Source: Escherichia phage BF17. Taken from it: a stretch of DNA of 64,000 bases. The notes under the pieces are model-generated. The model saw only the letters and a program-made list of their open reading frames with translations, made no database searches and was not told where the DNA came from. A program made the translations under genes and the position numbers. The stretch lies in sequence record MW822008.1; one strand, 5' to 3'. Positions 1,702-13,451 of this stretch are shown piece after piece. Positions within the stretch are counted from its first letter, which is position 1. Every line of letters starts with the position of its first letter.

Positions 1702-1756
1702 GTTTTACATCGAGAGCGGGAACACTTCCCGCTACATATTACGAGAGATTAAAACG

Positions 1757-2119
1757 ATGGCGACTCAAATCACTAAAATTATTGCTAACCTGGTTAACTT
1801 TCGCGACGAGATGAAAGATCTTCCGGCAGAAACGGTAAAAATTCACATTTCAGCTTATCGGGAACTTATTGCAATGTTACCGCTTAAGCGTGAACAATAC
1901 GCCGCGACCGTGATGCTTGATGCGATGATCCATAAGATGATCGCCAGTGATTTAACGATGGTTTATCAGTATATGGGCGAAAATTTCGCGGTGTATAGTA
2001 AACCAGTACCAGGAATGGAAAGTACAGAAGTATTACACGGTTTAAATTTAAAACAAGATGCATGGGATAATATGCCTCGTTTCCTGGTATGGGCTGACAG
2101 TGGCAAAATTTACGAATAA
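1757..2119 (+). CDS. hypothetical protein (120 aa)
   Basis: internal ATG 1757 of ORF 1700; track start lies in promoter -10; promoter + stem-loop upstream. Confidence 0.7.
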   Translation: MATQITKIIANLVNFRDEMKDLPAETVKIHISAYRELIAMLPLKREQYAATVMLDAMIHKMIASDLTMVYQYMGENFAVYSKPVPGMESTEVLHGLNLKQDAWDNMPRFLVWADSGKIYE

Positions 2120-2133
2120 GTTTAATAAAGTAC

Positions 2134-2161
2134 TTGCAAACTAAGTTTAAAAGCGTATAAT
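2134..2161 (+). promoter_or_regulatory. sigma70 promoter with 5' stem-loop
   Basis: TTGCAA 2134-2139, TATAAT 2156-2161, hairpin GTGGGGAAtagtTCCCCAC 2173-2191. Confidence 0.7.
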
Positions 2162-2213
2162 ACTTTACATCAGGTGGGGAATAGTTCCCCACTATAATTA
2201 AGAGATTAATTTT

Positions 2214-2447
2214 ATGAGTACTATTTTAACTGTTTCTCAATCCGTTGCACTGACTGACCTATTAAACGCTTTAAGCCGTTGCACTGAGGTTGGCTTGTTT
2301 GATGTGGTTGACGTTGCACCGGACGTTATTAATCATTTTTGTGATGCGATGGAAGAATGTAAGGAAGATGATAGCCGTATGATGGCGGTCGCCTTTGAGG
2401 AAGTACAGCCGGGTGAGATCAAAGGTTTACCAGTACTGAAAAAATAG
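2214..2447 (+). CDS. hypothetical protein (77 aa)
   Basis: ORF track; promoter + stem-loop upstream; weak AAGAG RBS. Confidence 0.7.
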   Translation: MSTILTVSQSVALTDLLNALSRCTEVGLFDVVDVAPDVINHFCDAMEECKEDDSRMMAVAFEEVQPGEIKGLPVLKK

Positions 2448-2450
2448 TAC

Positions 2451-2478
2451 TTGCAAACTAAGTTTAAAAGCGTATAAT
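2451..2478 (+). promoter_or_regulatory. sigma70 promoter with 5' stem-loop
   Basis: TTGCAA 2451-2456, TATAAT 2473-2478. Confidence 0.7.
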
Positions 2479-2529
2479 ACTTTCTATCAGGTGGTGAATA
2501 GTTCCCCACTATATAAGAGGATTAAAAAA

Positions 2530-2769
2530 ATGGCTAAATCAAAAATGTTCTTAGGTCACAAAAACAAAACTCATTGGAATGTAAGCCTTTGGATTAATAA
2601 CGATGAGTCATTGTACCGGTTGGCCCAGGACTTTATTAATGATAGCACTAATCGCAATGATGCGGCCCGTCATATGATGCTATTTTTAGAACAGACTGGA
2701 CAAGATAAAACACCGGACGGATTCAAATATAGCACTACTGCGATCCGTGCGGCGATGGTTGGAATGTAA
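2530..2769 (+). CDS. hypothetical protein (79 aa); paralog of 4570..4809
   Basis: ATG 2530 with RBS AAGAGGA; shares HKNKT(H/Q)WNVSLWINN...TPDGFKYSTTAIRAAMVGM with 4570 gene. Confidence 0.75.
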   Translation: MAKSKMFLGHKNKTHWNVSLWINNDESLYRLAQDFINDSTNRNDAARHMMLFLEQTGQDKTPDGFKYSTTAIRAAMVGM

Positions 2770-2782
2770 TAGAATTTATTTA

Positions 2783-2819
2783 AAGTACTATCATTTTTTT
2801 GCGATAGTACTTTATAATA
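2783..2819 (+). promoter_or_regulatory. Promoter with palindromic operator-like site AAGTACTATC...GATAGTACTT
   Basis: inverted repeat 2783-2792 / 2803-2812 followed by TATAAT 2814-2819. Confidence 0.55.
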
Positions 2820-2855
2820 GTGTTTTATTCATACACCAACGATAAGGGTAACAGC

Positions 2856-3122
2856 ATGAATATTAAGTATTTTGCGACGCGTGAACAAGCTCGGATCGCC
2901 GCACGCCAGGACGGGGCAACGTTTAAAGATATGGGAGCGGGATCGGCAAGTGGTGAACGTTGGGCCATTGTAAAGCGTAGTACCGCCAGATCATTACAGT
3001 ACTGGTTAGCGGCGTTAAAAAGTCCCGATAGTGTATCGCGTCGAGTGGTAGAAATAAAGCTCGACCGAAAGGGCAACCGCGTGACCGTGTACCGTACTAA
3101 AAAGATTGCAGTACTTGAATAA
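2856..3122 (+). CDS. hypothetical protein (88 aa); paralog of 15228..15623
   Basis: ATG 2856; shares FATREQARIAAR...FKDMG...RKGNRVTVY with 15228 gene. Confidence 0.75.
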   Translation: MNIKYFATREQARIAARQDGATFKDMGAGSASGERWAIVKRSTARSLQYWLAALKSPDSVSRRVVEIKLDRKGNRVTVYRTKKIAVLE

Positions 3123-3129
3123 AAAGTAC

Positions 3130-3157
3130 TTGCAAACTATGTTTAATGGCGTATAAT
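3130..3157 (+). promoter_or_regulatory. sigma70 promoter with 5' stem-loop
   Basis: TTGCAA 3130-3135, TATAAT 3152-3157, hairpin AGCGGGAAcactTCCCGCC. Confidence 0.7.
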
Positions 3158-3209
3158 GTTTTACATCGAGAGCGGGAACACTTCCCGCCTATAACCTGGA
3201 GTAATAAAA

Positions 3210-3440
3210 ATGACTAATATGTATATGACTGAAGTTAAAACCGTAAAAGATACTACCACGAATAAAACTACTTACTTACAGCGGATCTGCGGTGTATGGC
3301 AACGTATCAGCAAATCAAAGTACTTTAAATTAACATCATATGCAAACCGTTCGGATTCATTCAGTACTGAAATAAAAGGTAATAAAGTACACCAATACGG
3401 CACTTATTATTATTATAGCCTGGACGCGATTGCAGTATAA
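3210..3440 (+). CDS. hypothetical protein (76 aa)
   Basis: ORF track; RBS GGAG 3198-3201. Confidence 0.7.
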   Translation: MTNMYMTEVKTVKDTTTNKTTYLQRICGVWQRISKSKYFKLTSYANRSDSFSTEIKGNKVHQYGTYYYYSLDAIAV

Positions 3441-3470
3441 GCAGTTTACAAATCTTTACAATTGCCGGTA

Positions 3471-3550
3471 TTGACTTATTTTGTCAGTACTGGCATAATG
3501 TATTCATTGGCAGATAAGCCGTAGCCCATAGGGTGCGGGAGTGTATCTAT
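3471..3550 (+). promoter_or_regulatory. Promoter (TTGACT-17-CATAAT) plus conserved transcribed element GCCCATAGGGTGCGGGAGTGTATC
   Basis: TTGACT 3471-3476, CATAAT 3494-3499, element about 3524-3550; no ORF downstream. Confidence 0.55.
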
Positions 3551-3563
3551 AGAAAAAGTAGTT

Positions 3564-3643
3564 TATTACAGTTACAATTGTGCACCCGGTGGGTTAGCTG
3601 TTGTCATGGGGTATATTATGCCAGTACTTGATAATGCTGTCAA
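3564..3643 (-). promoter_or_regulatory. Convergent minus-strand promoter (TTGACA-17-CATAAT) plus conserved element ACCCACCGGGTGCACAA
   Basis: minus-strand -35 at 3638-3643, -10 at 3615-3620, element about 3575-3595; faces the 3471 promoter. Confidence 0.55.
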
Positions 3644-3688
3644 TACTTTTTTTACTATTCAGTACTGAAAACTATTTTTAAAAAGTAC

Positions 3689-3716
3689 TTGCAAACTATG
3701 TTTAAAGGCGTATAAT
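3689..3716 (+). promoter_or_regulatory. sigma70 promoter P1 upstream of structured leader
   Basis: TTGCAA 3689-3694, TATAAT 3711-3716. Confidence 0.65.
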
Positions 3717-3721
3717 GTTTT

Positions 3722-3806
3722 ACATCAGGACGGGGAACGAAATAAGTAACTCCCCGTTAAGTAGCCCAGGAGTAAGGCACACGAAAAACTCCCCTGATAA
3801 AATAGT
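3722..3806 (+). ncRNA. Conserved structured leader / candidate small RNA between tandem promoters (copy 1)
   Basis: about 85% identical to 14031-14114; hairpin CGGGGA...TCCCCG with compensatory change in copy 2. Confidence 0.4.
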
Positions 3807-3834
3807 TTGACAAATGTTTTTAAAAGCGTATAAT
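3807..3834 (+). promoter_or_regulatory. sigma70 promoter P2 (TTGACA-16-TATAAT)
   Basis: TTGACA 3807-3812, TATAAT 3829-3834. Confidence 0.65.
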
Positions 3835-3866
3835 ACTTACATCAACTACTGAATGAGGGTTACAAA

Positions 3867-4478
3867 ATGAAAACTATCACTACTACTACTTTCGTTATGG
3901 ATTTTTCTGAATTGAACGCAGAACAAAAAACGTCAGCTATCGAACTGGTTCGGGAACGTGAAAAAAACTTAAACGATGATTATTTTTCTGAAAGTGAAAT
4001 TGAATACTATAAAGAAACAGTACTACCGGAATATGGCATTAATGACGCTGATTTACGTTTCAGTGGCTTTTGGTCCCAGGGTGACGGTGCATCAATCAGT
4101 ACTGACCACGTTGACGCAGTGAAGTTTTTACGCAAGGTAAGAGCATTAACTAAGTATCGCTCAATCCGTCACTTGCTGAATGAAGATGATTTGGCGATGA
4201 GTGTAAAGCGTTCTCACTCCCACTACTCGCATGAAAACACTGTAAGCGGGTACATTGAATCGGCTTACACTGATTTAACCGCAAAACAAGAAACGTTAGT
4301 TAATGAGCTTGAGGAACTACTCACTGAAACTATTCGTGAATTATCCCGCAAGTTGTACCGTGATTTAGAGAATGCATATGAGGATCAATTCACTACTGAA
4401 AACATTACGGCACTGATTGAGGGTAACGAATATCAATTCAATGTTATTGATGGCGTAGTAGAATCAATCGAATATTAA
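3867..4478 (+). CDS. hypothetical acidic protein (203 aa)
   Basis: ORF track; RBS GAGGG; largest module-1 ORF after the kinase-like gene. Confidence 0.75.
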   Translation: MKTITTTTFVMDFSELNAEQKTSAIELVREREKNLNDDYFSESEIEYYKETVLPEYGINDADLRFSGFWSQGDGASISTDHVDAVKFLRKVRALTKYRSIRHLLNEDDLAMSVKRSHSHYSHENTVSGYIESAYTDLTAKQETLVNELEELLTETIRELSRKLYRDLENAYEDQFTTENITALIEGNEYQFNVIDGVVESIEY

Positions 4479-4491
4479 TTTAAAAAAGTAC

Positions 4492-4519
4492 TTGCAAACT
4501 AAGTTTAAAAGCGTATAAT
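4492..4519 (+). promoter_or_regulatory. sigma70 promoter with 5' stem-loop
   Basis: TTGCAA 4492-4497, TATAAT 4514-4519, hairpin GCGGGGAgtggTTCCCCGC. Confidence 0.7.
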
Positions 4520-4569
4520 ACTTTATATCGAGGCGGGGAGTGGTTCCCCGCTCAAACGAGGATTTAAAA

Positions 4570-4809
4570 ATGGCTAGTTCTAAAACTTACAACGGGCACA
4601 AAAACAAAACTCAATGGAATGTAAGCCTTTGGATTAATAACGGTGAGTCATTGTATCGGCTTGCACAAAGTTGTATCGCACAAAGTAGAACTAAAGATAT
4701 TGCAGCGGAATGTATGTACCGCAGATTAAAAGCCAACGGTACTACTACAACGCCGGACGGTTTTAAGTATAGCACTACTGCGATCCGTGCTGCAATGGTT
4801 GGAATGTAA
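4570..4809 (+). CDS. hypothetical protein (79 aa); paralog of 2530..2769
   Basis: ATG 4570, RBS GAGGA. Confidence 0.75.
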   Translation: MASSKTYNGHKNKTQWNVSLWINNGESLYRLAQSCIAQSRTKDIAAECMYRRLKANGTTTTPDGFKYSTTAIRAAMVGM

Positions 4810-4866
4810 TATTCAGTACTGAGATAATGGCGGGTAATAGTTCCCGCCTTTACTGAGGGTTATCTA

Positions 4867-5127
4867 ATGAGTAAAGTAATAAAGTACAATGTGTTAAGCA
4901 AATCATTGTCTATCAGTGAATGCACCGATGGTTTTTGGATGTACGATGAAACGCGTGGCATGAATTTAGCTATGCGTGCAAAAACTGCTGAGGCGGCGTA
5001 TATTCAAGCACTGGAATACTACCAGGAACGTTTAAAGGAAGTAGAAGAAGATTATAAAAGCCTCAAAGCGAAAGTAGATCATTTCGTCGGTCAATTCATC
5101 GAGGAAGACGACGACAAACAATATTGA
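4867..5127 (+). CDS. hypothetical protein (86 aa)
   Basis: ORF track; RBS GAGGG; upstream stem-loop GGCGGGtaatagttCCCGCC. Confidence 0.7.
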   Translation: MSKVIKYNVLSKSLSISECTDGFWMYDETRGMNLAMRAKTAEAAYIQALEYYQERLKEVEEDYKSLKAKVDHFVGQFIEEDDDKQY

Positions 5128-5135
5128 AAAAGTAC

Positions 5136-5163
5136 TTGCAATTAGTTTTCAGTACTGTATAAT
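5136..5163 (+). promoter_or_regulatory. sigma70 promoter with 5' stem-loop
   Basis: TTGCAA 5136-5141, TATAAT 5158-5163, hairpin GGGAGAAatggTTCTCCC. Confidence 0.7.
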
Positions 5164-5213
5164 GGTTTACATCAAAGGGAGAAATGGTTCTCCCTGGTAA
5201 TGAGGAAAATAAA

Positions 5214-5435
5214 ATGGCTAATATCACTACTCTTTCCCAACTGGAAGCACTGGTTAAATCTATGCGGGAACATGCCGACAAAATCGGCGTACAAGATCCA
5301 GCCGTTTGCTTCTGCGACGAATTGAATGATGATACCCTGGTAATAGCAGAAGTCCAGGACGTTTCTAACTATTCATCGCGTTACACTGGCGGCGTAGCAA
5401 ATAAAGGTGACTTCTGTTTATACCTTACAAAATAA
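5214..5435 (+). CDS. hypothetical protein (73 aa)
   Basis: ATG 5214, RBS GAGG 5202-5205. Confidence 0.75.
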   Translation: MANITTLSQLEALVKSMREHADKIGVQDPAVCFCDELNDDTLVIAEVQDVSNYSSRYTGGVANKGDFCLYLTK

Positions 5436-5438
5436 CAA

Positions 5439-5471
5439 CGCGGGGAGATAATAACTCCCCGTTACTTTTTC
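5439..5471 (+). terminator. Rho-independent terminator
   Basis: hairpin CGGGGAGataataaCTCCCCG followed by T-run. Confidence 0.7.
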
Positions 5472-5502
5472 AGTACTGAATCATTTAATAGACGGATCTA
5501 TG

Positions 5503-5573
5503 CACCCGGTGGGTTAGTGACTGTTTCGTCTTGATGTAGTAATTATGCCAGTACTGGATGCACTTGTCAACAA
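5503..5573 (-). promoter_or_regulatory. Minus-strand promoter (TTGACA-17-CATAAT) plus conserved ACCCACCGGGTGCATAG element
   Basis: -35 at 5568-5573, -10 at 5545-5550, element about 5503-5518; no minus-strand ORF. Confidence 0.5.
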
Positions 5574-5603
5574 CTATTTTTCAAATACTTTTTATTAAAA
5601 TAC

Positions 5604-5631
5604 TTGCAATTAGTTTTTAAACGCGTATAAT
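5604..5631 (+). promoter_or_regulatory. sigma70 promoter with 5' stem-loop
   Basis: TTGCAA 5604-5609, TATAAT 5626-5631. Confidence 0.7.
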
Positions 5632-5678
5632 GTTTTGCATAGGGGGAGCGGTTCCCCTGGTAACTAAGGAATAATAAA

Positions 5679-5915
5679 ATGCTTGAACAAATCAAATCAA
5701 CGTCTTCGAATGTAACGGGAACGGTAGCACACTTTACTAGTGATGAATCGCGGGGCGTTCCCTATTGTGCTGTACATGTAAACACTGAGGGTAACTACTG
5801 GTTTACGGTTTACGGATCATATTCATTTGGACGGCCAGGGCATCAAAAAATTCTGGATAAAGTACAACCAACGGGTAAAAATATCACTGCTGAAATGTTT
5901 TATAAAAAATCATAA
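5679..5915 (+). CDS. hypothetical protein (78 aa)
   Basis: ORF track; RBS AAGGA. Confidence 0.75.
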   Translation: MLEQIKSTSSNVTGTVAHFTSDESRGVPYCAVHVNTEGNYWFTVYGSYSFGRPGHQKILDKVQPTGKNITAEMFYKKS

Positions 5916-5920
5916 AGTAC

Positions 5921-5948
5921 TTGATAATAGTTTTTAGTACTGTATAAT
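5921..5948 (+). promoter_or_regulatory. sigma70 promoter with 5' stem-loop
   Basis: TTGATA 5921-5926, TATAAT 5943-5948, hairpin GGGGGAGCGGTTCCCCC. Confidence 0.65.
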
Positions 5949-5999
5949 ATTTTACATCGCAAGGGGGAGCGGTTCCCCCTGGTAACTAAGGATAATCAA

Positions 6000-6299
6000 A
6001 TGAAAATTGCAATCATCGCCCTGGCTTTATCTGTTTCCTCTTTCGCTGTTAATGCGTCATTAGATGTAAGTAGTGAAAAATTCATTCAGTGCACTGTTGC
6101 AATGACCGATGAAAGTACTGGCGAGATTGTTTTAAAGGATTTAGAGATCCAGCCGGAAGCATTTAAAAACGGGCCGTTCCATGAAGAAGACGAAAAAGGT
6201 AGCACGACAATTTATTACGATGCAAGTACTAAACGCGGTTCGGTCACTGTTATGGATACTGAGAAAGTAACTCATACTGGCGTTATTAATTGCCGTTGA
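6000..6299 (+). CDS. secreted/periplasmic hypothetical protein (99 aa) with N-terminal signal peptide
   Basis: MKIAIIALALSVSSFAVNA-S: hydrophobic core plus AxA-like cleavage site. Confidence 0.75.
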   Translation: MKIAIIALALSVSSFAVNASLDVSSEKFIQCTVAMTDESTGEIVLKDLEIQPEAFKNGPFHEEDEKGSTTIYYDASTKRGSVTVMDTEKVTHTGVINCR

Positions 6300-6320
6300 T
6301 ATATACTACGGGGTAACATC

Positions 6321-6551
6321 ATGACTAAGCGAATTGTTTTACTTAACGAAAGCAGTACTACACAACTACTTAACGCCGTGCATTATGATATTGAAACGAG
6401 CGTTAATCTTATCAGTACTGTAGTACTGTTGGACACTGGAAAGGTCGCCAATGATAAAGCGATTGCAGGTATACTAACGGATCTTGAGCCTGGTAGCAGT
6501 GCATCAATAACGTTAAATGGTAAAGTGTTTAACATTTTACTTACTGATTAA
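6321..6551 (+). CDS. hypothetical protein (76 aa)
   Basis: ORF track; RBS GGGG; same operon as 6000 gene. Confidence 0.65.
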   Translation: MTKRIVLLNESSTTQLLNAVHYDIETSVNLISTVVLLDTGKVANDKAIAGILTDLEPGSSASITLNGKVFNILLTD

Positions 6552-6555
6552 GTAC

Positions 6556-6586
6556 ATAGCCCACCTGGTGGGCTTTTTTGTTTTTG
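6556..6586 (+). terminator. Rho-independent terminator
   Basis: hairpin AGCCCACCtGGTGGGCT then TTTTTTG. Confidence 0.7.
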
Positions 6587-6633
6587 TAGTATCGTAGTAC
6601 TGAGATACTTTGAAAATAGTTTTAAAAAAGTAG

Positions 6634-6661
6634 TTGACATTACCGCAGAAAAGCGTAGAAT
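6634..6661 (+). promoter_or_regulatory. sigma70-like promoter (TTGACA-16-TAGAAT) with long diverged leader
   Basis: TTGACA 6634-6639, TAGAAT 6656-6661; leader 6668-6770 related to the 3722/14031 leaders. Confidence 0.6.
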
Positions 6662-6784
6662 GTATTACATCAAGACGGGGAGCACTAAGTAGACCGCCAG
6701 TAAGTCGAACGAAAAACTGGACACGTCGAGAAAACTTTGATACACTAATAAACGTAAACTAAACTTTAATTGAGGATTTATAAA

Positions 6785-7267
6785 ATGGCTAATGTAAAAT
6801 CATTCATCAAAGCACTGGTAGCAAATGAAACTAACGTCGCGGCTGAGATCCTGGCTGAACTGGATAACGATACCATGAAAGCGGTACGCAATAATTTTAA
6901 CATCGCGTACAGTACTGCGAAAGAACTACAAGCAAATAAAGCGGCAGAAATTGAAGCGGCAAAGGCGGCCCGTGAAGCAGAACTACAAGCAACAATCGAA
7001 AGTATTCAGGCGGCAGTAGTTGGATTGGATCTGGAAGTAGTTACAGAGATGGCACAAAAAGCCCTGGCGGTTAAGTATGGGGAAGACAAGCCAGAAGTAA
7101 AAGCCAAAAAATGGATTCAGGAACGCGTAGCGGTAGTACTGGACAACGGGGAAGAATATCTGATTCCGGTGCGTGGTAACTGCATTGCGGTAGTACTGGA
7201 CGCGATTAACTCCAGTGGTATGACTCGCGAGGAATGGATCGAAGCTCATCGCAAAGTTGAAGCATAA
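6785..7267 (+). CDS. hypothetical protein (160 aa), Ala/Glu-rich helical N-terminal part
   Basis: ATG 6785 with RBS GAGG 6772-6775. Confidence 0.75.
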   Translation: MANVKSFIKALVANETNVAAEILAELDNDTMKAVRNNFNIAYSTAKELQANKAAEIEAAKAAREAELQATIESIQAAVVGLDLEVVTEMAQKALAVKYGEDKPEVKAKKWIQERVAVVLDNGEEYLIPVRGNCIAVVLDAINSSGMTREEWIEAHRKVEA

Positions 7268-7286
7268 CAATTAAAGTACTGAATCA

Positions 7287-7318
7287 CTAGCCCACTTATA
7301 CAGTGGGCTTTTTTGTGT
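7287..7318 (+). terminator. Rho-independent terminator
   Basis: hairpin AGCCCACTtatacAGTGGGCT then TTTTTTG. Confidence 0.75.
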
Positions 7319-7324
7319 TTATCG

Positions 7325-7440
7325 TTTACCAGGCCACCAGCACCGCCTAGAAACGATTCTAACGCATTAAACTGATTATCTGATGCATCACCCTAGCTGG
7401 TGGCGTTAAGGTCGTTAGAATGCGATTGAGTGCGTTTAAA
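7325..7440. repeat. Large imperfect palindrome with Chi octamers on both arms and TTAGAATGCG motifs
   Basis: CCACCAGC 7334-7341 and GCTGGTGG 7396-7403; ATTCTAACGCATT / CGTTAGAATGCG inside. Confidence 0.5.
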
Positions 7441-7468
7441 GTATTTTACAAAAAGTAATAAAAAGTAC

Positions 7469-7496
7469 TTGCACGATTAAGAGATTAGCGTATAAT
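7469..7496 (+). promoter_or_regulatory. sigma70 promoter with 5' stem-loop
   Basis: TTGCAC 7469-7474, TATAAT 7491-7496, hairpin GGGGGAAacggTTCTCC. Confidence 0.7.
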
Positions 7497-7551
7497 GTTT
7501 TACATCGAGAGGGGGAAACGGTTCTCCTTCCAAATCAAAGGAATCAAAACA

Positions 7552-7779
7552 ATGGCTATTATCATTACTCGCGTATCTGGTACTACTGGCAACGAACAAG
7601 TAGTTGCAGTCATTACCAACAAGGAAGGTGCGGAATTGCAAAATGCAATGAATACCTGGGCCGTTAATGAGTTCGGTCAGTGGGCAAGTGTAGCATACAT
7701 TGAAACCTATCAAGTGCCGTCGATTAGTTTAACTGATTTGGGCGTTGAGCGTATCCTTTGCCTTGATGAATTAAATTAA
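7552..7779 (+). CDS. hypothetical protein (75 aa)
   Basis: ATG 7552, RBS AGGA 7538-7541. Confidence 0.75.
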   Translation: MAIIITRVSGTTGNEQVVAVITNKEGAELQNAMNTWAVNEFGQWASVAYIETYQVPSISLTDLGVERILCLDELN

Positions 7780-7787
7780 AAAAGTAC

Positions 7788-7815
7788 TTGCAAAGTAAAT
7801 CGAATAAAGTATAAT
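7788..7815 (+). promoter_or_regulatory. sigma70 promoter with 5' stem-loop
   Basis: TTGCAA 7788-7793, TATAAT 7810-7815, hairpin GGGGAGAAaatgGTTCTCCCC. Confidence 0.7.
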
Positions 7816-7865
7816 ACATTACATCAAGGGGAGAAAATGGTTCTCCCCACTACAAGGAAACTAAA

Positions 7866-8009
7866 ATGAAAACTTGTCAATGTGGTCAGAAATCTATTAC
7901 GGGTTTAAAGCGGGGCGTTGCTCTTTGCCAGTACCATTATAATTTACAAGTATGGGGTAAAGAATGGGCCGACCAGGTGGAAGCAGCAAAGAAAGCAAAA
8001 AGTAAGTAA
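7866..8009 (+). CDS. small Cys-containing protein (47 aa; CQCG...CQYHY), below ORF-track cutoff
   Basis: translated by hand: MKTCQCGQKSITGLKRGVALCQYHYNLQVWGKEWADQVEAAKKAKSK; RBS AAGGAA; promoter upstream. Confidence 0.6.
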   Translation: MKTCQCGQKSITGLKRGVALCQYHYNLQVWGKEWADQVEAAKKAKSK

Positions 8010-8022
8010 AAATATTATCACA

Positions 8023-8057
8023 GTACTATTGACATAGTTTGATAGTACTGGCATAAT
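8023..8057 (+). promoter_or_regulatory. Palindromic promoter cassette AGTACTAT-TGACATAGTTTG-ATAGTACT (copy 1)
   Basis: TTGACA 8029-8034, CATAAT 8052-8057; about 60 nt (8007-8070) exactly repeated at 8299-8362. Confidence 0.7.
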
Positions 8058-8088
8058 AGATTTTATCAAGACGACTAAGGAAAACAAA

Positions 8089-8301
8089 ATGGCTATCATT
8101 ACAAAAATCAAAGTAAACAAATCACTGGTTAAACTTGAACAAGTGAAAGCAGGTTATAAAGTATCGTGGTGCGGTATGTATCGGATGTTCGCAGATATTG
8201 ATGAAGCGATCAATTATTACAGCGACACGGTTAAAAACTTTGTTCGTGCTGATGTGGTTATGGCAGTGGCAGCACATAAAGCAGCGAAAGAAAGTAAGTA
8301 A
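8089..8301 (+). CDS. hypothetical protein (70 aa); paralog of 11203..11382
   Basis: ORF track; RBS AAGGAA; MAII(T/A)K start shared with 11203 gene. Confidence 0.75.
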   Translation: MAIITKIKVNKSLVKLEQVKAGYKVSWCGMYRMFADIDEAINYYSDTVKNFVRADVVMAVAAHKAAKESK

Positions 8302-8314
8302 AAATATTATCACA

Positions 8315-8349
8315 GTACTATTGACATAGTTTGATAGTACTGGCATAAT
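8315..8349 (+). promoter_or_regulatory. Palindromic promoter cassette (copy 2, exact repeat of copy 1)
   Basis: TTGACA 8321-8326, CATAAT 8344-8349. Confidence 0.7.
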
Positions 8350-8390
8350 AGATTTTATCAAGACAACATATTAATTTAAGGAATACAAAA

Positions 8391-8714
8391 ATGGCTAAAA
8401 CTATCATTAACACCGTTTCCCTGGCTGCAATCCGTGCAATCAATGTTGACGGTAAACGTTGGACTGATTCATATGGCAATACTTATCATTCTTGTCATGT
8501 AAGCGTTGAACTGGATAACGGTTTGAATGATCTGGCGGTTGAATCATTTACTTATGGCTATGAAGATGCATATCAACAAACGGCGTTAGATCTCTTAAAG
8601 GAATCAGTAGACGGGCTTAATACTGATGAAACCTCCCTTACTCGTTTGTGCAATGATCTTAATATCCCGTTGCATTGTACTGTACAGAATGTTAAACGCA
8701 AAAAAGATCTTTAA
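8391..8714 (+). CDS. hypothetical protein (107 aa); paralog of 14809..15132
   Basis: shares RWTDS(Y/H)GNTYHSC(H/Y)VS and C-terminal RKKD(L/M) with 14809 gene. Confidence 0.75.
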   Translation: MAKTIINTVSLAAIRAINVDGKRWTDSYGNTYHSCHVSVELDNGLNDLAVESFTYGYEDAYQQTALDLLKESVDGLNTDETSLTRLCNDLNIPLHCTVQNVKRKKDL

Positions 8715-8794
8715 TTAGCTTTACTTTATGCAGATACTTTGATATAGTGTCTGCATAGGGGAAAGAAATTAAATTAACTTAAGAGGATCGTATA

Positions 8795-9064
8795 ATGAAA
8801 AATATCAGTACTTTAATCGATGCAGGTACACATGTTCGGCGGTCTATGGTTGCAACCAGTACTACAAAACAAGTAGCGAGCGGTTATCTTGTATTTGTGC
8901 ACGATGGTAAACTCCTGGAACGTTCAATCAATTTTGATGTTAAAAACAATTGCCGTTTTATTATCTTTAAGCGTGAACAATATAAAATTGATTTACCAGC
9001 GAAGCCCATAAGCGGGGCGTACAACGTGCAATCATTGTTTGAGCGTCAACCTTACACCTATTAA
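8795..9064 (+). CDS. hypothetical protein (89 aa)
   Basis: ORF track; strong RBS AAGAGGA; upstream inverted repeat ATGCAGATACT...AGTGTCTGCAT. Confidence 0.7.
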   Translation: MKNISTLIDAGTHVRRSMVATSTTKQVASGYLVFVHDGKLLERSINFDVKNNCRFIIFKREQYKIDLPAKPISGAYNVQSLFERQPYTY

Positions 9065-9115
9065 TCAAAACATCGTTAGCGGTCGTTTAAGGCCGCTTAT
9101 ATTGGGGATTATACC

Positions 9116-9388
9116 ATGAACGTTAATCAAGTACTGAATGAGATCGAAAGCATCATTAAACCGATGAAGCGTACTGATGCTATGTTAACACCGGAAGAAA
9201 GCCGCCTATATGAGCGTTACAGCGTCGAACAAGTCCAGGCAATGGCTATGGCTACGCCAGCCGTTAAACCGCCTGAGAATGCGTTACAGGACGTTACAGG
9301 GGATTATATCATTAATCCAGTACTAGGGAAGATGCCGCCAATCACCGAAGAACAAAAAGACTATTTGAGTCAGTACTTAAAAGGTTAA
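9116..9388 (+). CDS. hypothetical protein (90 aa)
   Basis: ORF track; RBS GGGG. Confidence 0.65.
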   Translation: MNVNQVLNEIESIIKPMKRTDAMLTPEESRLYERYSVEQVQAMAMATPAVKPPENALQDVTGDYIINPVLGKMPPITEEQKDYLSQYLKG

Positions 9389-9393
9389 TTAAT

Positions 9394-9603
9394 ATGCTTA
9401 CTGTACAGGATAAGATCGACATCTTAAAGGTTAATATGTATGTGATTGATGCCGTACCTGGTAAAGTATTTGCATACGATGATTCTAATCGCAGTCCTTT
9501 CTATTGTAGTCATGTAGTTGGATACGTGCCGTTGGCGTATGTTATCGAAAGAGTGGTTGATGCAGCATACAATCATTTTTTAGAAAATAATACTTGCAAT
9601 TAG
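9394..9603 (+). CDS. hypothetical protein (69 aa)
   Basis: ORF track; 5 nt after previous stop. Confidence 0.6.
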   Translation: MLTVQDKIDILKVNMYVIDAVPGKVFAYDDSNRSPFYCSHVVGYVPLAYVIERVVDAAYNHFLENNTCN

Positions 9604-9621
9604 TTTTTAAACGCGTATAAT
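9594..9621 (+). promoter_or_regulatory. sigma70 promoter with 5' stem-loop
   Basis: TTGCAA 9594-9599, TATAAT 9616-9621, hairpin GGGGAGAAatgaTTCTCCCC. Confidence 0.7.
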
Positions 9622-9672
9622 GTTTTACATGAAGGGGAGAAATGATTCTCCCCACTAATTAAGGAATATGAA

Positions 9673-9819
9673 ATGAAAGCATCAAAAAAGAGTAATACCA
9701 AGAAAGCATGTTCACCTTTCGCTGGGGTATTCCCTTTACGTTTCGTTGATGAAGTGGTTTCCTACCCGCTGGGCCTTACTCCTGAGATGGTAGAAAGTTT
9801 GCGTAAATCTAAAAAATAA
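9673..9819 (+). CDS. small basic protein (48 aa), below ORF-track cutoff
   Basis: hand-translated MKASKKSNTKKACSPFAGVFPLRFVDEVVSYPLGLTPEMVESLRKSKK; RBS AAGGAA. Confidence 0.55.
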   Translation: MKASKKSNTKKACSPFAGVFPLRFVDEVVSYPLGLTPEMVESLRKSKK

Positions 9820-9823
9820 TACT

Positions 9824-9850
9824 TGCAATTAGTTTTCAGTACTGTATAAT
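9824..9850 (+). promoter_or_regulatory. sigma70 promoter with 5' stem-loop
   Basis: TTGCAA 9824-9829, TATAAT 9845-9850. Confidence 0.7.
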
Positions 9851-9900
9851 AGTTTACATGAAGGGGAGAAATGATTCTCCCCAATAACAGGAGAAACAAA

Positions 9901-10053
9901 ATGAAACAATACAACGCTCGGTTTGATGTTACTATCGGCAACGGCAAAGGTCAATTCTCTTTCAGTACTCGCCGCAGTTATACAGAAAACTTCCTGCGAA
10001 ATTGTGCACTGACCGCCGCACAAATTAAACATTACTTCCAGGCTAAAAAATGA
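9901..10053 (+). CDS. hypothetical protein (50 aa)
   Basis: ATG 9901 with RBS CAGGAG; track start 9871 lies in leader. Confidence 0.6.
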   Translation: MKQYNARFDVTIGNGKGQFSFSTRRSYTENFLRNCALTAAQIKHYFQAKK

Positions 10054-10139
10054 AATCATTAGCTTATTACAGTTCGGCGGTGATCGGTGCATTGATCGCG
10101 GCATTGTTAGTAACCTATCTATTCTTTATGGTGATTTAA
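10050..10139 (+). CDS. tiny hydrophobic single-TM peptide (29 aa)
   Basis: ATGA overlap with upstream stop; MKSLAYYSSAVIGALIAALLVTYLFFMVI. Confidence 0.35.
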   Translation: MKSLAYYSSAVIGALIAALLVTYLFFMVI

Positions 10140-10259
10140 ATGAATCCTAACGGTTTAATTTACAGTACTACTAAAACGAAAGCAGATAAAGCGAAAGTAA
10201 AGGAGTACATTAAGCAAGGCATGACGCGAAAGGCGGCAGTACTGAAAGCTAAAAAATAA
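10140..10259 (+). CDS. small basic protein (39 aa)
   Basis: ATG adjacent to previous TAA; MNPNGLIYSTTKTKADKAKVKEYIKQGMTRKAAVLKAKK. Confidence 0.35.
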   Translation: MNPNGLIYSTTKTKADKAKVKEYIKQGMTRKAAVLKAKK

Positions 10260-10267
10260 ATGAAAAA

Positions 10268-10350
10268 AGTGGTTGACTTCGGTCAGCCATTTTGCTATTA
10301 TATATTCATTGAGAGATAGCTCACTAGCCCACCGGGTGCATAAGTGTATC
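10268..10350 (+). promoter_or_regulatory. Composite module: terminator-like hairpin overlapping promoter (TTGACT-17-TATTAT) plus conserved element GCCCACCGGGTGCATAAGTGTATC
   Basis: hairpin 10271-10288 with T-run; TTGACT 10273-10278; TATTAT 10296-10301; element 10327-10350. Confidence 0.55.
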
Positions 10351-10394
10351 TATTATATAAGTATTGAGTACTGAGAACTATTTTTAAAAAGTAC

Positions 10395-10422
10395 TTGCAA
10401 ACTATCTCAATTGGCGTATAAT
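10395..10422 (+). promoter_or_regulatory. sigma70 promoter with 5' stem-loop
   Basis: TTGCAA 10395-10400, TATAAT 10417-10422. Confidence 0.7.
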
Positions 10423-10473
10423 GTTTTACATCGAGAGGGGGAACGGTTTCCCCTGGTAATAAGGAAACGAATC

Positions 10474-10815
10474 ATGACTATCTCAATTGCTCAATCTAAC
10501 TTTGAAAATGAAATCATCGCCCAGGCACTGCGTTTAAATGATGGTCGGGCCGAAATTAATTACGGTTTCAATTCAGGCGGTTGTGAAAACTATCAGTACT
10601 TTGTAACTGCTGATGGCGGTGTCCTGGGCATCAATACCGTTATTGTAAACATTCAGAAAATTAATTTCAATGATCCAGACGATAGCCAGTTTTACATTGT
10701 AGGCGTAGACGTGAACTATGAGGATGACTCACTAACTGATGATCACACTGGCGAGAAGTTAGAAAGTGCATACGGTGAAGATGATTATCAGTCCGGTCCA
10801 GAAGATTTTGAATAA
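10474..10815 (+). CDS. hypothetical protein (113 aa), acidic C-terminus
   Basis: ATG 10474 with RBS AAGGAA. Confidence 0.75.
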   Translation: MTISIAQSNFENEIIAQALRLNDGRAEINYGFNSGGCENYQYFVTADGGVLGINTVIVNIQKINFNDPDDSQFYIVGVDVNYEDDSLTDDHTGEKLESAYGEDDYQSGPEDFE

Positions 10816-10828
10816 TATTAAAAAATAG

Positions 10829-10857
10829 TTTGACAATAGATTATAGTACTGTATAAT
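10829..10857 (+). promoter_or_regulatory. sigma70 promoter (TTGACA-17-TATAAT) with 5' stem-loop
   Basis: TTGACA 10829-10834, TATAAT 10852-10857. Confidence 0.7.
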
Positions 10858-10906
10858 AAGTTACATCAAGGGGAGAATAGTTCTCCCCACTAACAGAGAA
10901 AACAAA

Positions 10907-11119
10907 ATGGCTAATATCTGCACTGTACTGAAAAATGCAAAACAAGTTTTATTTTCTGACCACGATTATTTTAATAAAGATATTACAGGCGTTCGGAATA
11001 TCAAAGATGTAAAAAGTGTTATGGGTATCTATTGCAATATGAAACGTGTTGGAACGTTCGGCGACAAAGTACTATACCAGGCAGGGGATTACAATTTTAC
11101 ACTGACTATCATTAACTAA
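10907..11119 (+). CDS. hypothetical protein (70 aa)
   Basis: ORF track; RBS GAGAAAA. Confidence 0.7.
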   Translation: MANICTVLKNAKQVLFSDHDYFNKDITGVRNIKDVKSVMGIYCNMKRVGTFGDKVLYQAGDYNFTLTIIN

Positions 11120-11132
11120 AAATATTATCACA

Positions 11133-11167
11133 GTACTATTGACATAGTTTGATAGTACTGACATAAT
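11133..11167 (+). promoter_or_regulatory. Palindromic promoter cassette (copy 3)
   Basis: TTGACA 11139-11144, CATAAT 11162-11167, flanked by AGTACTAT / ATAGTACT. Confidence 0.7.
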
Positions 11168-11202
11168 AACTTTTATCAACTACACTACTAAGGAATTAAA
11201 AA

Positions 11203-11382
11203 ATGGCTATCATCGCAAAAACTGAAATCGTTGGTCTGGATTCTATCATCATGACGTTTGAAGATCAAAAAGGTATGTATGTAGTTTCATATGGTGATTA
11301 TGTTCGGGAGTATGAAACGGTAGACGAAGCCTTTGAAAGTTATATTCGCCAGGTGAATAAAGCATACGACGACTACCGCTAA
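11203..11382 (+). CDS. hypothetical protein (59 aa); paralog of 8089..8301
   Basis: hand-translated; RBS AAGGAA. Confidence 0.6.
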   Translation: MAIIAKTEIVGLDSIIMTFEDQKGMYVVSYGDYVREYETVDEAFESYIRQVNKAYDDYR

Positions 11383-11403
11383 AATATATTACCAGTACTA
11401 TTA

Positions 11404-11437
11404 AAGTTATTGACATAGTTTGATAGTACTGTATAAT
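11404..11437 (+). promoter_or_regulatory. Palindromic promoter cassette (copy 4)
   Basis: TTGACA 11410-11415, TATAAT 11432-11437. Confidence 0.7.
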
Positions 11438-11481
11438 AAGTTTTATAAACAGTAGTTAACTTAACCTAAGAGAGAAATAAA

Positions 11482-11625
11482 ATGATCGCACTGGATTCAT
11501 TCATCGACGCAGTACTGGCAAAAACTGGCGAGGATCTGACCGCAGAACAATACGCGATGATCGAGCAATGTCAGCAAAACGGTAAATCGGTGAAAGATAC
11601 TGTTAAGATTATCCGCAAGATGTAA
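11482..11625 (+). CDS. small protein (47 aa), below ORF-track cutoff
   Basis: hand-translated MIALDSFIDAVLAKTGEDLTAEQYAMIEQCQQNGKSVKDTVKIIRKM; RBS AGAGAAA. Confidence 0.55.
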   Translation: MIALDSFIDAVLAKTGEDLTAEQYAMIEQCQQNGKSVKDTVKIIRKM

Positions 11626-11631
11626 GATTAT

Positions 11632-11665
11632 AGCCCACTGGTTAACGCTGGTGGGCTTTAATCCT
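11632..11665 (+). terminator. Terminator-like hairpin containing a Chi octamer
   Basis: AGCCCAC...GTGGGCT stem; GCTGGTGG 11647-11654; weak T-run. Confidence 0.45.
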
Positions 11666-11730
11666 TTACCCTATACAATGTCAGTACTAAACCGTTTATC
11701 TCATTAGAATGCGTTACAGGACGTTTGACA

Positions 11731-11928
11731 ATGATTAGCATGAAATCAGTACAAAAACAAATAGAAACATTATCAAAAATTAAACGTAAACAGTACTCGT
11801 TAGAATATACAATCAATGGTAACTATCATCTAATGAAAGAGAATAATTTTATCGTCATTGATGAATCATTGCAAGTTATTAGTATAGTACTGAAAGCATT
11901 AATTAATGATAGAAAAAAATTAAAATAA
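11731..11928 (+). CDS. hypothetical protein (65 aa), AT-rich codon usage
   Basis: ATG 11731 (track start is TTG 11725); weak RBS; no promoter seen. Confidence 0.4.
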   Translation: MISMKSVQKQIETLSKIKRKQYSLEYTINGNYHLMKENNFIVIDESLQVISIVLKALINDRKKLK

Positions 11929-11932
11929 TCTA

Positions 11933-12013
11933 TTGACAATATCCTCCAGTACTGGCATAATACTTACATCAAGACGAGAACGTCACTAACCCATAGGGTG
12001 CACAAATGTAACT
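11933..12013 (+). promoter_or_regulatory. Promoter (TTGACA-17-CATAAT) plus conserved element ACCCATAGGGTGCACAAATGTAAC
   Basis: TTGACA 11933-11938, CATAAT 11956-11961, element 11988-12013. Confidence 0.55.
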
Positions 12014-12020
12014 GTATAAT

Positions 12021-12057
12021 ATTGATCAAAAAATGATCTGATCAATACTTGATCAAT
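12021..12057. promoter_or_regulatory. GATC cluster: 4 GATC sites in 31 bp, three as TGATCAA
   Basis: GATC at 12024, 12035, 12040, 12051 within the leader upstream of the TraR-like gene. Confidence 0.6.
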
Positions 12058-12259
12058 TTGCGTAAAGTAGTATAATTCTATGCAGTTGGTTAGACGAAAG
12101 GTTATGATTAGTAGTGCAAGTGTATAAAAATTTTCATGGTGTATCGTTCCGCACATATGGCAATGAATATGTGGTATCATGTGGATTGGAAAAAGTAAGA
12201 ACAAGTAATATTATTGTCGCATTACAGTACTATAGTATTTTTATAATGAGGTTAAAATA

Positions 12260-12517
12260 ATGGCTGTAGGATTCGCGAAAGATGGGGCCGAACAAGACGA
12301 GATTAACGCAGTGATTCAGGCCGCCGTTAACCACGCTAGAAAGCAAATTAACGCACAAATAGAATCACTGATACATTGCCTCGACTGCGGCGATATAATC
12401 CCTGAGAAACGACGCCAGGCCGTTAAGGGATGTAAGTACTGCATAACTTGCCAGGAGGATCATGATAGTACTTTTAAACGTCCCCCGCGTAATTGTTGGC
12501 ATAGATCTATGAGATAA
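12260..12517 (+). CDS. TraR/DksA-family C4 zinc-finger protein (85 aa)
   Basis: CLDCGDIIPEKRRQAVKGCKYCITCQ = C-x2-C-x13-C-x2-C-x2-C arrangement with IPE..RR typical of TraR; RBS GAGG. Confidence 0.75.
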   Translation: MAVGFAKDGAEQDEINAVIQAAVNHARKQINAQIESLIHCLDCGDIIPEKRRQAVKGCKYCITCQEDHDSTFKRPPRNCWHRSMR

Positions 12518-12523
12518 AAAGTA

Positions 12524-12552
12524 TTGACAGTACTATCCAGTAGTGTTATAGT
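12524..12552 (+). promoter_or_regulatory. sigma70 promoter (TTGACA-17-TATAGT) with 5' stem-loop
   Basis: TTGACA 12524-12529, TATAGT 12547-12552, hairpin AGGGGAAacatcTTCCCCT. Confidence 0.65.
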
Positions 12553-12598
12553 ACTTACATCAAGGGGAAACATCTTCCCCTACTAAGAGGAAATGAAA

Positions 12599-12787
12599 AT
12601 GGAAAACTTATCAAGTATTTTAGTACAAGATGATTTCGGTAATCCTGGAAGTGCTATCATTGTTCGGGGTAATAAAGCAACATTTGTTATTGCTGGTGGA
12701 CCTGTACAGCGTAGCATTAAAAACAATGCCGTTACTATTAATAATGTACGCTATCGCTTAGATAAAGAATTGATTCATAAACTGTAA
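12599..12787 (+). CDS. hypothetical protein (62 aa)
   Basis: ATG 12599 with RBS AGAGG (track start 12593 too close to RBS). Confidence 0.65.
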   Translation: MENLSSILVQDDFGNPGSAIIVRGNKATFVIAGGPVQRSIKNNAVTINNVRYRLDKELIHKL

Positions 12788-12814
12788 TATTAATTTAATA
12801 GAGGATAACAATAA

Positions 12815-13138
12815 ATGTACATTCATACTACTATCACAAAGGAAGTCCGTTGCCAGTTCGAAAGTATTCCGGGCGTATGTTTCATCACTGGTACGTTTTC
12901 CCCTGGTGATCGTGATAATCCAGTACTGTTACAATTACGCCATCCATCATGGGATAAAGCATTTGATCTACCGTTGAATGAATTCGCAACTACTGCTGAA
13001 AAGTACATTAAAAATATTCGCGAGAATGATCGACTATTCATTAATGCTTTCAGTGATTCCGCGTTAAGCGAGATCCACAGCGTATTGGTTGCAATCATGG
13101 AATCAATGGAGAAAACTAAATTCAAACAAGGTGAATAA
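12815..13138 (+). CDS. hypothetical protein (107 aa)
   Basis: ORF track; RBS AGAGGA. Confidence 0.7.
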   Translation: MYIHTTITKEVRCQFESIPGVCFITGTFSPGDRDNPVLLQLRHPSWDKAFDLPLNEFATTAEKYIKNIRENDRLFINAFSDSALSEIHSVLVAIMESMEKTKFKQGE

Positions 13139-13144
13139 AAACTA

Positions 13145-13434: not shown

Positions 13435-13451
13435 TATAAGGAGTACAGCTT

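Follow-up and report, generated by a model that had tools for sequence, protein, structure and literature searches.

RecBCD enters DNA at double-strand ends and degrades it until it meets the octamer 5'-GCTGGTGG-3' (Chi) from the 3' side, after which it nicks the DNA, attenuates its nuclease, and loads RecA on the 3' tail (PMC12315714; bioRxiv 10.1101/2021.07.08.451572). That E. coli RecBCD reads this octamer is established (reviewed in PMC12315714). Phage P1 has 50 Chi sites, or one per 1.9 kb, and its growth requires RecA and RecBCD (bioRxiv 10.1101/2021.07.08.451572). In P1 and its relatives P7, D6, and NGUA22, Chi is concentrated in and near the terminal repeats (Subramaniam & Smith, bioRxiv 10.1101/2021.07.08.451572), and the bias of P1 Chi toward non-coding DNA has been an argument for selection on the octamer (bioRxiv 10.1101/2021.07.08.451572). 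The lambdoid phage LLS has 23 sites, or one per 1.86 kb, and its growth is enhanced by RecBCD (Zheng, Casjens, Davidson, Amundsen & Smith, Genome Res 2025, PMC12315714); its authors read these sites as a phage using host RecBCD (PMC12315714). A rule drawn from lambdoid phages is that Chi-rich phages have no recombination module of their own (PMC12315714). Here we analyze a stretch of 64,000 nucleotides (nt) from Escherichia phage BF17 (MW822008.1), referred to as the window, and within it a non-coding spacer around positions 7325-7440 that carries two Chi sites in opposite orientations. Phage T5 is a further system for comparison: it has a long exact terminal repeat, the first-step-transfer DNA, with pre-early genes and strong host-type promoters.

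We propose that the two sites of this spacer belong to a ten-site Chi array, confined to a direct terminal repeat (DTR) of about 20.6 kb, that would serve recombination of the genome ends by RecBCD and RecA. We put the probability of this reading at roughly 65%. As far as we found, a terminal Chi array has not previously been described for jumbo phages.

RESULTS

Chi is over-represented in the terminal repeat

Bases 6800-8000 of the window match 45 phage records at 86-99% identity, all of them Asteriusvirus jumbo myoviruses, including 121Q, PBECO4, G17, phAPEC6, and vB_Ec-M-J. The relatives were isolated on E. coli and Salmonella. By these alignments the window represents the left genome end of a jumbo phage of the genus Asteriusvirus (121Q/PBECO4 group). 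Its position 1 aligns with position 1 of vB_Ec-M-J, which is the same nucleotide and the physical left terminus. The vB_Ec-M-J record annotates a DTR of 21,525 bp, the end of which aligns with window position 20,590. Published Asteriusvirus DTRs are 20.7-21.5 kb long by PhageTerm and, for fEgEco12, additionally by restriction mapping (PMC13070987, PMC11895373).

An earlier reading of the letters alone (the sequence-only reading) had described positions 7325-7440 as a roughly 100-bp imperfect palindrome with Chi on both arms. The outer arms are where that reading put them: GCCACCAGC at 7333-7341 and GCTGGTGGC at 7396-7404 form a perfect 9-bp inverted repeat, 54 nt apart. Both do contain Chi, in opposite orientations, on the - strand at 7334-7341 and on the + strand at 7396-7403. 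The Chi sites are described here, and the palindrome below.

There are 11 Chi sites in the window, compared to 0.42 in dinucleotide-preserving shuffles, none of 100 of which reached three. Ten of the 11 lie within 585-19,229, inside the DTR (about one per 2 kb), and a single site lies in the next 43 kb. Eight of the DTR sites are on the + strand (first bases 597, 7396, 11647, 12692, 13960, 16308, 17715, and 19222) and two are on the - strand (585 and 7334). For the first 21.5 kb, an order-3 Markov model predicts 0.37 occurrences of GCTGGTGG against 10 observed, which places Chi among the ten most over-represented octamers; the other top octamers are pieces of promoters and the ubiquitous CAGTACTG, described below. 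Strand-specific models of order 0 to 3 predict 0.11-0.27 sites on the + strand and 0.04-0.11 on the - strand, meaning that both orientations are enriched 20- to 50-fold.

The sites occur in various contexts: DNA upstream of promoters, a terminator hairpin, coding DNA, and an inverted pair. Since these contexts differ from site to site, the octamer is no passenger of a larger repeat, and Chi is found in no promoter or repeat family. The window begins at the left terminus, and hence - strand sites face an enzyme arriving from the left end and + strand sites face one arriving from the right. The sites at 585 and 7334 thus face the left end, and the eight + strand sites face the right end, where they lie in the right-hand DTR copy. 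Within the pairs 7334/7396 and 585/597, an enzyme from either side meets its active site first.

One explanation for this excess is that it is a passive by-product of DTR composition, codon usage, or ancestry, with no selection on Chi. The DTR has a G+C content of 38%, compared to 31-35% elsewhere, and a positive GC skew, which the strand bias of Chi matches. However, Markov models of order 0 to 3 built from the DTR itself predict 0.1-0.4 sites versus the 10 observed, and octamers sharing seven of eight bases with Chi show no comparable enrichment in the window. Most Chi sites are non-coding, Chi is retained while its flanks diverge, and other genera reach the same density at unrelated positions (see the following sections). 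We regard a by-product of composition as very improbable.

The sites are conserved in Asteriusvirus

In the vB_Ec-M-J genome, which we put together in full from eight pieces, the DTR copies at the two ends do not differ; either one holds 11 Chi sites (9 +, 2 -), or one per 1.96 kb, versus 0.39 expected. The unique part of the genome (335.5 kb) holds 23 sites, or one per 14.6 kb, versus 10.1 expected. Seven of the 11 sites fall in the non-coding DNA of vB_Ec-M-J, put at 35% (p = 0.05).

Nine of the ten DTR sites of the window are intact both in vB_Ec-M-J and in the more distant 121Q, although their flanks have kept only 81-97% identity; the one site not kept is 7334 on the - strand. The inverted pair at 585-604 is among those kept in both phages. 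Under uniform neutral divergence, the chance that all nine would survive in 121Q is about 0.002, by our own arithmetic (identity to the eighth power, multiplied over the nine sites). For the spacer itself, we aligned 16 related phages. The + strand site at 7396-7403 is invariant in all 16, EJP2 included, and it is one of just three fully invariant stretches of at least eight columns in the spacer. Ten of the 16 have an intact - strand site at 7334; five read CCACTAGC there, 121Q reads CCGTCAGC, and in EJP2 the site cannot be aligned.

EJP2 differs from the other phages at this locus. In the comparison of EJP2 1400-1790 with window 7270-7560, homology starts about 20 bp left of Chi 7396; sequence left of approximately 7376 is unrelated, and the upstream gene is a different one. 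A mosaic junction lies directly beside the conserved Chi site in that phage.

Other jumbo-phage lineages show the same enrichment at mostly different positions

We examined four phages with mapped DTRs from other lineages: fENko-Kae01, Muenster, CBB, and XbC2. fENko-Kae01 (Klebsiella; Munch/SE_PL group) has a 19.7-kb DTR with 12 + and 2 - Chi sites, and two sites in the next 25 kb. The 20.0-kb DTR of Muenster (Klebsiella; Alcyoneusvirus) has 7 + and 1 -, followed by none in 30 kb. CBB (Pectobacterium; Mimasvirus) has 7 + and 2 - in 22.5 kb and three in the next 27.5 kb, and XbC2 (Xanthomonas) has 7 + and 2 - in 17.6 kb and three in the next 32 kb. Chi is therefore enriched in the DTR of all four. 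When the five lineages are pooled, 50 sites fall in 100 kb of DTR and nine in 159 kb of adjacent unique DNA. In fENko-Kae01, Chi is the single most enriched octamer, and eight of its 14 sites fall in the 26% of the DNA that does not code for protein (p = 0.014); several of these are inside promoter spacers.

Chi positions can almost never be aligned between genera. Asteriusvirus and fENko-Kae01 do share the terminal inverted pair and one site embedded in a terminator, and CBB and XbC2 have two sites in common. The inverted pair, CCACCAGC-N4-GCTGGTGG, stands at 585-604 in Asteriusvirus and at 484-503 in fENko-Kae01, within sequence that is otherwise 81% identical. Searching IMG/VR for exact matches to this pair gave 46, mostly in short unrelated contigs (about chance level), plus 121Q. 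The same enrichment at mostly non-homologous positions implies that site number is maintained while individual sites turn over. With respect to the termini, the distance from the right DTR end to a properly oriented Chi is 0.4-1.4 kb in each of the five lineages; at the left end it is about 0.5 kb, in Asteriusvirus and fENko-Kae01.

XbC2, isolated on Xanthomonas vesicatoria, had been chosen as a host-mismatch negative control. Its DTR (1-17,581) holds nine Chi sites versus 0.47 expected. In the literature searchable as open-access text, the Chi sequence of Xanthomonas is not established. The enrichment in XbC2 may mean that the Chi of its host is the same, that the phage switched hosts recently, or that the octamer has another reader.

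The last of these leads to a broader alternative, in which GCTGGTGG is read by a protein that RaK2-like jumbo phages encode in common, one that might serve packaging, the initiation of replication, or regulation of the early region, and the identity of the octamer with Chi is incidental. The XbC2 result is consistent with such a reader, particularly as seven of the nine XbC2 sites cannot be aligned with its relative CBB, and so is the confinement of the enrichment to a repeat that also holds early genes. On the other hand, the octamer is one of about 33,000 octamer/complement pairs, which makes an exact coincidence with Chi very unlikely a priori. No extended motif is common to the flanks of the sites, and their density and non-coding bias mirror those of P1 and LLS. 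Four of the five lineages have known hosts among the Enterobacterales, and the RecBCD of that order reads this very octamer. We consider a phage-encoded reader improbable and favor RecBCD as the reader of these sites.

The two inverted repeats do not form a palindrome

The inner arms named in the sequence-only reading are also present: ATTCTAACG at 7356-7364 and CGTTAGAAT at 7413-7421 form a second perfect 9-bp inverted repeat. The order of the four arms, however, is L1-L2-R1-R2, such that the two pairs cross rather than nest, with spacers of 48-54 nt. Because the pairs are interleaved, no single hairpin or cruciform is possible.

We nevertheless considered whether the arms might pair as a DNA cruciform or a pseudoknotted RNA and so constitute a protein-binding or recombination structure, as had been suggested. 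Apart from the two repeats themselves, one result leans toward this idea: the + strand RNA fold is mildly more stable than its shuffles (z = -2.09). The corresponding values for DNA and for - strand RNA are -0.84 and -0.96, and minimum-energy folds of the DNA, or of RNA from either strand, use neither arm pair. Little RNA is in any case expected from the spacer, since a terminator precedes it and the next transcription start comes only after it. Across the 16 phages, neither pair shows covariation beyond that of column shuffles (338 of 500 shuffles were equally good); the left outer arm mutates without compensation in six of them, to the variants given above, while the right arm is fixed. Comparable repeats are also common. 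Perfect inverted repeats of at least 9 bp with spacers of up to 60 nt number 55 in the window, versus about 24 in composition-matched random sequence, and two such repeats in one 200-bp bin are expected about 0.75 times per 64 kb. We give almost no credence to pairing of the arms. The palindrome is not a real structural feature, and there is no palindrome or cruciform element here.

A dispersed 45-bp repeat overlaps the + strand site

The sequence-only reading had also noted a motif, TTAGAATGCG, that recurs at two further places, each time in non-coding DNA. An 11-mer containing it, GTTAGAATGCG, is exact at 1486 and 7414; the copy at 11703 has one mismatch (ATTAGAATGCG). All three are non-coding, as claimed. 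Two exact copies of an 11-mer in 64 kb are unremarkable alone. The motif nevertheless recurs beyond chance, as part of a repeat of about 45 bp: in a local alignment, 1466-1510 and 7394-7438 score 19, compared to a maximum of 15 in 300 shuffles. Every copy of this repeat lies in the DTR and reads along the + strand. vB_Ec-M-J and 121Q both keep the three non-coding ones (motif at 1487, 7415, and 11704); the partial one at 9274 is present in vB_Ec-M-J, and the stretch of 121Q examined has no match to it. We found no copies in the other 336 kb of vB_Ec-M-J or in fENko-Kae01.

Within the copy at our locus, GCGATTGAG (7422-7430) and the downstream AAAGTATTTT are invariant in the 16 phages, whereas the TAGAAT core at 7415 varies among relatives (TTGTAAT, TAAGAAC, TTAGAAA, TTAGAAC). 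This pattern makes a conserved -10 element unlikely, and the variation argues against a tight protein site at those bases, which was one of the functions suggested for the locus. We also evaluated TAGAAT (7416) directly as a sigma-70 -10 element, for which A2 and T6 should be conserved and a -35 should lie 16-18 bp upstream, and rejected it: the promoter scan calls none there, the final T is replaced in four of 16 relatives, and the upstream hexamer is CTAGCT.

It could still be argued that the functional element of the locus is this repeat (TTAGAATGCG...GAG..CGTTT), acting as a weak alternative promoter or a regulator-binding site, and that Chi merely overlaps it. The three or four + strand DTR copies, alike beyond shuffles, and the two segments invariant in 16 phages are in keeping with this, as is the position of copy 3, where the gene starting at 11731 lacks the usual promoter cassette. 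Against it, the putative -10 becomes TAAGAAC, TAGAAC, or TAGAAA in four of the 16 phages and has no -35, and copies are absent from the rest of the 357-kb relative and from fENko-Kae01. Copy 1 has no Chi and one copy is coding, which fits shuffled paralogous intergenic DNA. The simplest reading is that the repeat is such DNA, spread by recombination that shuffles early-gene cassettes (repeat families D12, D19, and D20). We think a function of the repeat as the element of this locus unlikely; it would in any event be compatible with a Chi array rather than exclusive of it.

Features of the spacer and of the surrounding repeat

The coordinates of the features discussed are collected in Table 1. 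The locus is a single non-coding spacer between two DTR cassettes, and the sequence-only reading had correctly placed it between a terminator (7289-7315) and the next promoter (7469-7496). That promoter belongs to the repeated promoter families D1, D3, D4, and D6, and the 5' GC hairpin of the family comes next. The genes flanking the spacer match only PHROG families of unknown function, and the sole Pfam match is below threshold. Scans of the whole window against Rfam (gathering threshold) and for tRNAs gave no match.

Some records (ELP-22, SD-2_S15, and SHEFM2K) annotate a 30-amino-acid "hypothetical protein" on the minus strand at 7359-7451. In the window the second codon of this open reading frame (ORF) is a stop, and the ORF list has none of 20 amino acids or more at its place; the ORF is probably an annotation artefact. 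For genome annotation, neither the palindrome nor, in all probability, the small ORF called here in some records is a real feature.

Table 1. Positions of Chi sites, repeat copies, and neighboring features in the window
Feature	Coordinates	Strand	Remarks
Left direct terminal repeat (DTR)	1..20590		Aligned to the annotated DTR end of vB_Ec-M-J (21,525); holds all ten clustered Chi
Inverted Chi pair CCACCAGC-acaa-GCTGGTGG	585..604		0.6 kb from left terminus
Repeat copy 1	1466..1510	+	Non-coding; GCTTATGTG in place of the Chi of copy 2
Intrinsic terminator of upstream gene (6770-7267)	7289..7315	+	AGCCCACT-loop-AGTGGGCT stem, then T run; G17 terminator annotated at homologous place
Chi, reads CCACCAGC on +	7334..7341	-	Faces RecBCD from left genome end; lineage-specific
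Repeat copy 2, TAGCT..TGG..TTAAgG.CGTTAGAATGCGaTTGAGnnCGTTT	7394..7438	+	Contains TTAGAATGCG (7415-7424); overlaps Chi 7396
Chi	7396..7403	+	Faces RecBCD from right genome end; invariant in 16 aligned phages
Early sigma-70-type promoter of gene 7552-7779	7469..7496	+	-35 TTGCAC 7469-7474, 16-nt spacer, -10 TATAAT 7491-7496
Partial repeat copy 4 (TGAGAATGCGTTACAGGACGTT)	9261..9324	+	Inside coding region
Chi in terminator hairpin	11647..11654	+	Exact octamer; kept in vB_Ec-M-J, 121Q, and homologous hairpin of fENko-Kae01
Repeat copy 3 (ATTAGAATGCGTTACAGGACGTTT)	11693..11727	+	Non-coding; overlaps ribosome-binding site of gene starting 11731
Chi, coding DNA	12692..12699	+	Exact octamer
Chi, non-coding	13960..13967	+	Exact octamer; about 30 bp upstream of early promoter
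Chi, coding DNA	16308..16315	+	Exact octamer
Chi, coding DNA	17715..17722	+	Exact octamer
Chi upstream of early promoter	19222..19229	+	Right-facing site closest to DTR right end (about 1.4 kb)

The DTR as a whole is laid out in small monocistronic cassettes: in each, a strong promoter of the sigma-70 type leads into a 5' GC hairpin, a Shine-Dalgarno sequence, and a small ORF, and a terminator closes the unit. Past the DTR end, at approximately 20,590, these spaced cassettes give way to tightly overlapping small ORFs, and the G+C content drops from about 38% to 31-33%. The G+C step at the DTR end of Muenster is even sharper (35.8% to 27.3%).

The most over-represented word of the window is the palindromic octamer CAGTACTG (core AGTACT, a ScaI site), found for example at 340-350, 377-386, and 1591-1625. 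It has 36 copies in the first 21.5 kb, versus about four expected, and 27 in the remaining window. The same is true of Muenster (61 copies), XbC2 (28), and CBB (21). The octamer adjoins the early-promoter -35 (AGTACTTGCA) and -10 (CAGTACTGTATAAT) and occurs alone as well. It is possibly a regulator site kept across these genera.

Two further features lie near the left terminus. At 750-914 there are about 12 imperfect 8-bp units (CTAGACGG / CTGGATGG) with super-periods of 24 and 32 bp. This array has an iteron-like appearance and sits in a 1.7-kb non-coding leader beside the terminus; it is a candidate that could act as a packaging or replication site. A near-consensus promoter at 353-402 (TTGACA, 17-nt spacer, TATAAT) lies about 360 bp from the terminus. 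Between it and the first gene, at about 1.7 kb, there is no obvious ORF, and a leader or non-coding transcript starting here could run over the terminal Chi pair and the 8-bp array.

DISCUSSION

The sequences show the excess of Chi, its confinement to the repeat, its placement, conservation, and non-coding bias, and its return in other genera. From these we infer that host RecBCD reads the Chi sites of this repeat and that recombination of the genome ends follows. The sequence of events would be as follows. When the linear genome enters the cell, RecBCD would load on both double-strand ends. The enzyme at the right end would unwind leftward through the right DTR copy and meet the eight + strand sites, 7396 among them; the enzyme at the left end would meet the - strand site at 585 and, in this lineage, the one at 7334. 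Recognition of Chi would attenuate degradation and cause RecBCD to load RecA on a 3' tail lying inside the DTR. Because the other DTR copy is homologous, the RecA-coated tail could invade it, in the same or a sister genome. The product would be a circle or a concatemer, possibly with a recombination-primed replication fork, rather than a destroyed genome. A side effect would be that RecBCD produces less degraded phage DNA close to the ends. The same role has been put forward for the Chi-dense ends of P1 and for the terminal Chi cluster of LLS.

The proposal in the sequence-only reading that this may be a recombination site gains support from the 25- to 50-fold excess of Chi throughout the DTR and from its conservation; the palindromic arrangement that had been the reason for it does not contribute. 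The vB_Ec-M-J annotation names no RecBCD inhibitor or DNA-end protector, in a genome where most genes have no assigned function and where the approximately 50 small DTR proteins were not scanned for inhibitors. This absence counts weakly in favor of RecBCD acting on the ends.

Several observations weigh against a RecBCD-dependent role. (i) Conservation of the - strand site at 7334 does not extend to the whole genus. (ii) The ratio of + to - sites, 8:2 here and 41:9 in the five lineages together, is near the roughly 2.5-3.5:1 that strand composition alone would give. As the bias is close to the prediction for a G-rich + strand, we do not claim direction-specific selection. (iii) XbC2 is as enriched as the other phages, although its host is not known to use this Chi. 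(iv) In open-access text we found no experiment linking these phages to RecBCD, no published test of RecBCD-dependent growth, and no paper that mentions Chi in them. (v) The phage group encodes recombination functions of its own, annotated in vB_Ec-M-J as a UvsX-like recombinase, UvsY, an SbcCD-like nuclease, and exonucleases. With such genes, these phages do not fit the rule that Chi-rich phages lack a Rec module. A possible reconciliation is that the ends are exposed in the cell before these later phage proteins have been made.

We tentatively extend this proposal to RaK2-like jumbo phages more broadly (Asteriusvirus, Alcyoneusvirus, Mimasvirus, and the Munch/Kae01 group), although we hold the extension to be somewhat less than an even bet. 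These phages may have evolved their DTRs of about 20 kb into dedicated Chi arrays, with early infection dependent on host RecBCD and RecA to rescue and join the genome ends despite a T4-like recombination system expressed later. If so, this would constitute a new host dependency, and a vulnerability, for a whole group of jumbo phages that are therapeutic candidates, and the rule on Chi-rich phages would have an exception. If the array of our phage works as we propose, it explains how a 350-kb linear genome with exposed ends survives RecBCD, and how its terminal repeats are joined before the recombination proteins of the phage exist. The recBCD and recA status of the host would then be a simple determinant of host range or resistance for therapy phages, and the rule on Chi-rich phages would need refining. 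The strategy of borrowing Chi, so far seen in temperate P1 and lambdoid phages, would extend to virulent jumbo phages that encode recombinases.

How closely does this array resemble the systems already described? T5 and our phage both have a long exact direct terminal repeat with early-expressed genes and strong host-type promoters. T5 is unrelated, and its repeat has an injection stop signal and nicks, none of which were identified here. The first 50 kb of T5 hold just two Chi sites, at 8127 and 8689, both on the + strand and both in its 10.2-kb repeat, which is too few for statistics.

LLS shares with our phage a large excess of Chi toward one genome end, mostly oriented for RecBCD arriving from the right. 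However, LLS has cohesive ends, no recombination genes, and Chi spread over its genome, whereas here the excess is confined to the DTR, recombination genes are present, and the strand bias is not clearly beyond compositional skew.

A terminal Chi cluster of the P1 and LLS type is marked by far more Chi at the genome ends than expected and by non-coding sites no sparser than coding ones, and our phage shows both. It departs from the rule for lambdoid phages, by which the phage has neither a recombination module nor a RecBCD inhibitor of its own, as judged by the UvsX-like, UvsY, SbcCD-like, and exonuclease genes of the relative. P1 differs in being temperate and in packaging its DNA by headful from a pac site, which gives variable permuted ends, and its need for RecA and RecBCD is known. 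Our phage is a virulent 350-kb myovirus with its own UvsX/UvsY, fixed ends, and an exact 20-kb repeat full of early genes, and its dependence on RecBCD is presumed from the array. P1 and our phage both have a linear, terminally redundant genome whose repeats must recombine; both have about one Chi site per 1.9-2 kb in the region of the ends, with Chi one of the commonest octamers and no sparser in non-coding DNA than elsewhere; and in both the proposed role of the sites is recombination of the repeats by RecBCD and RecA after injection.

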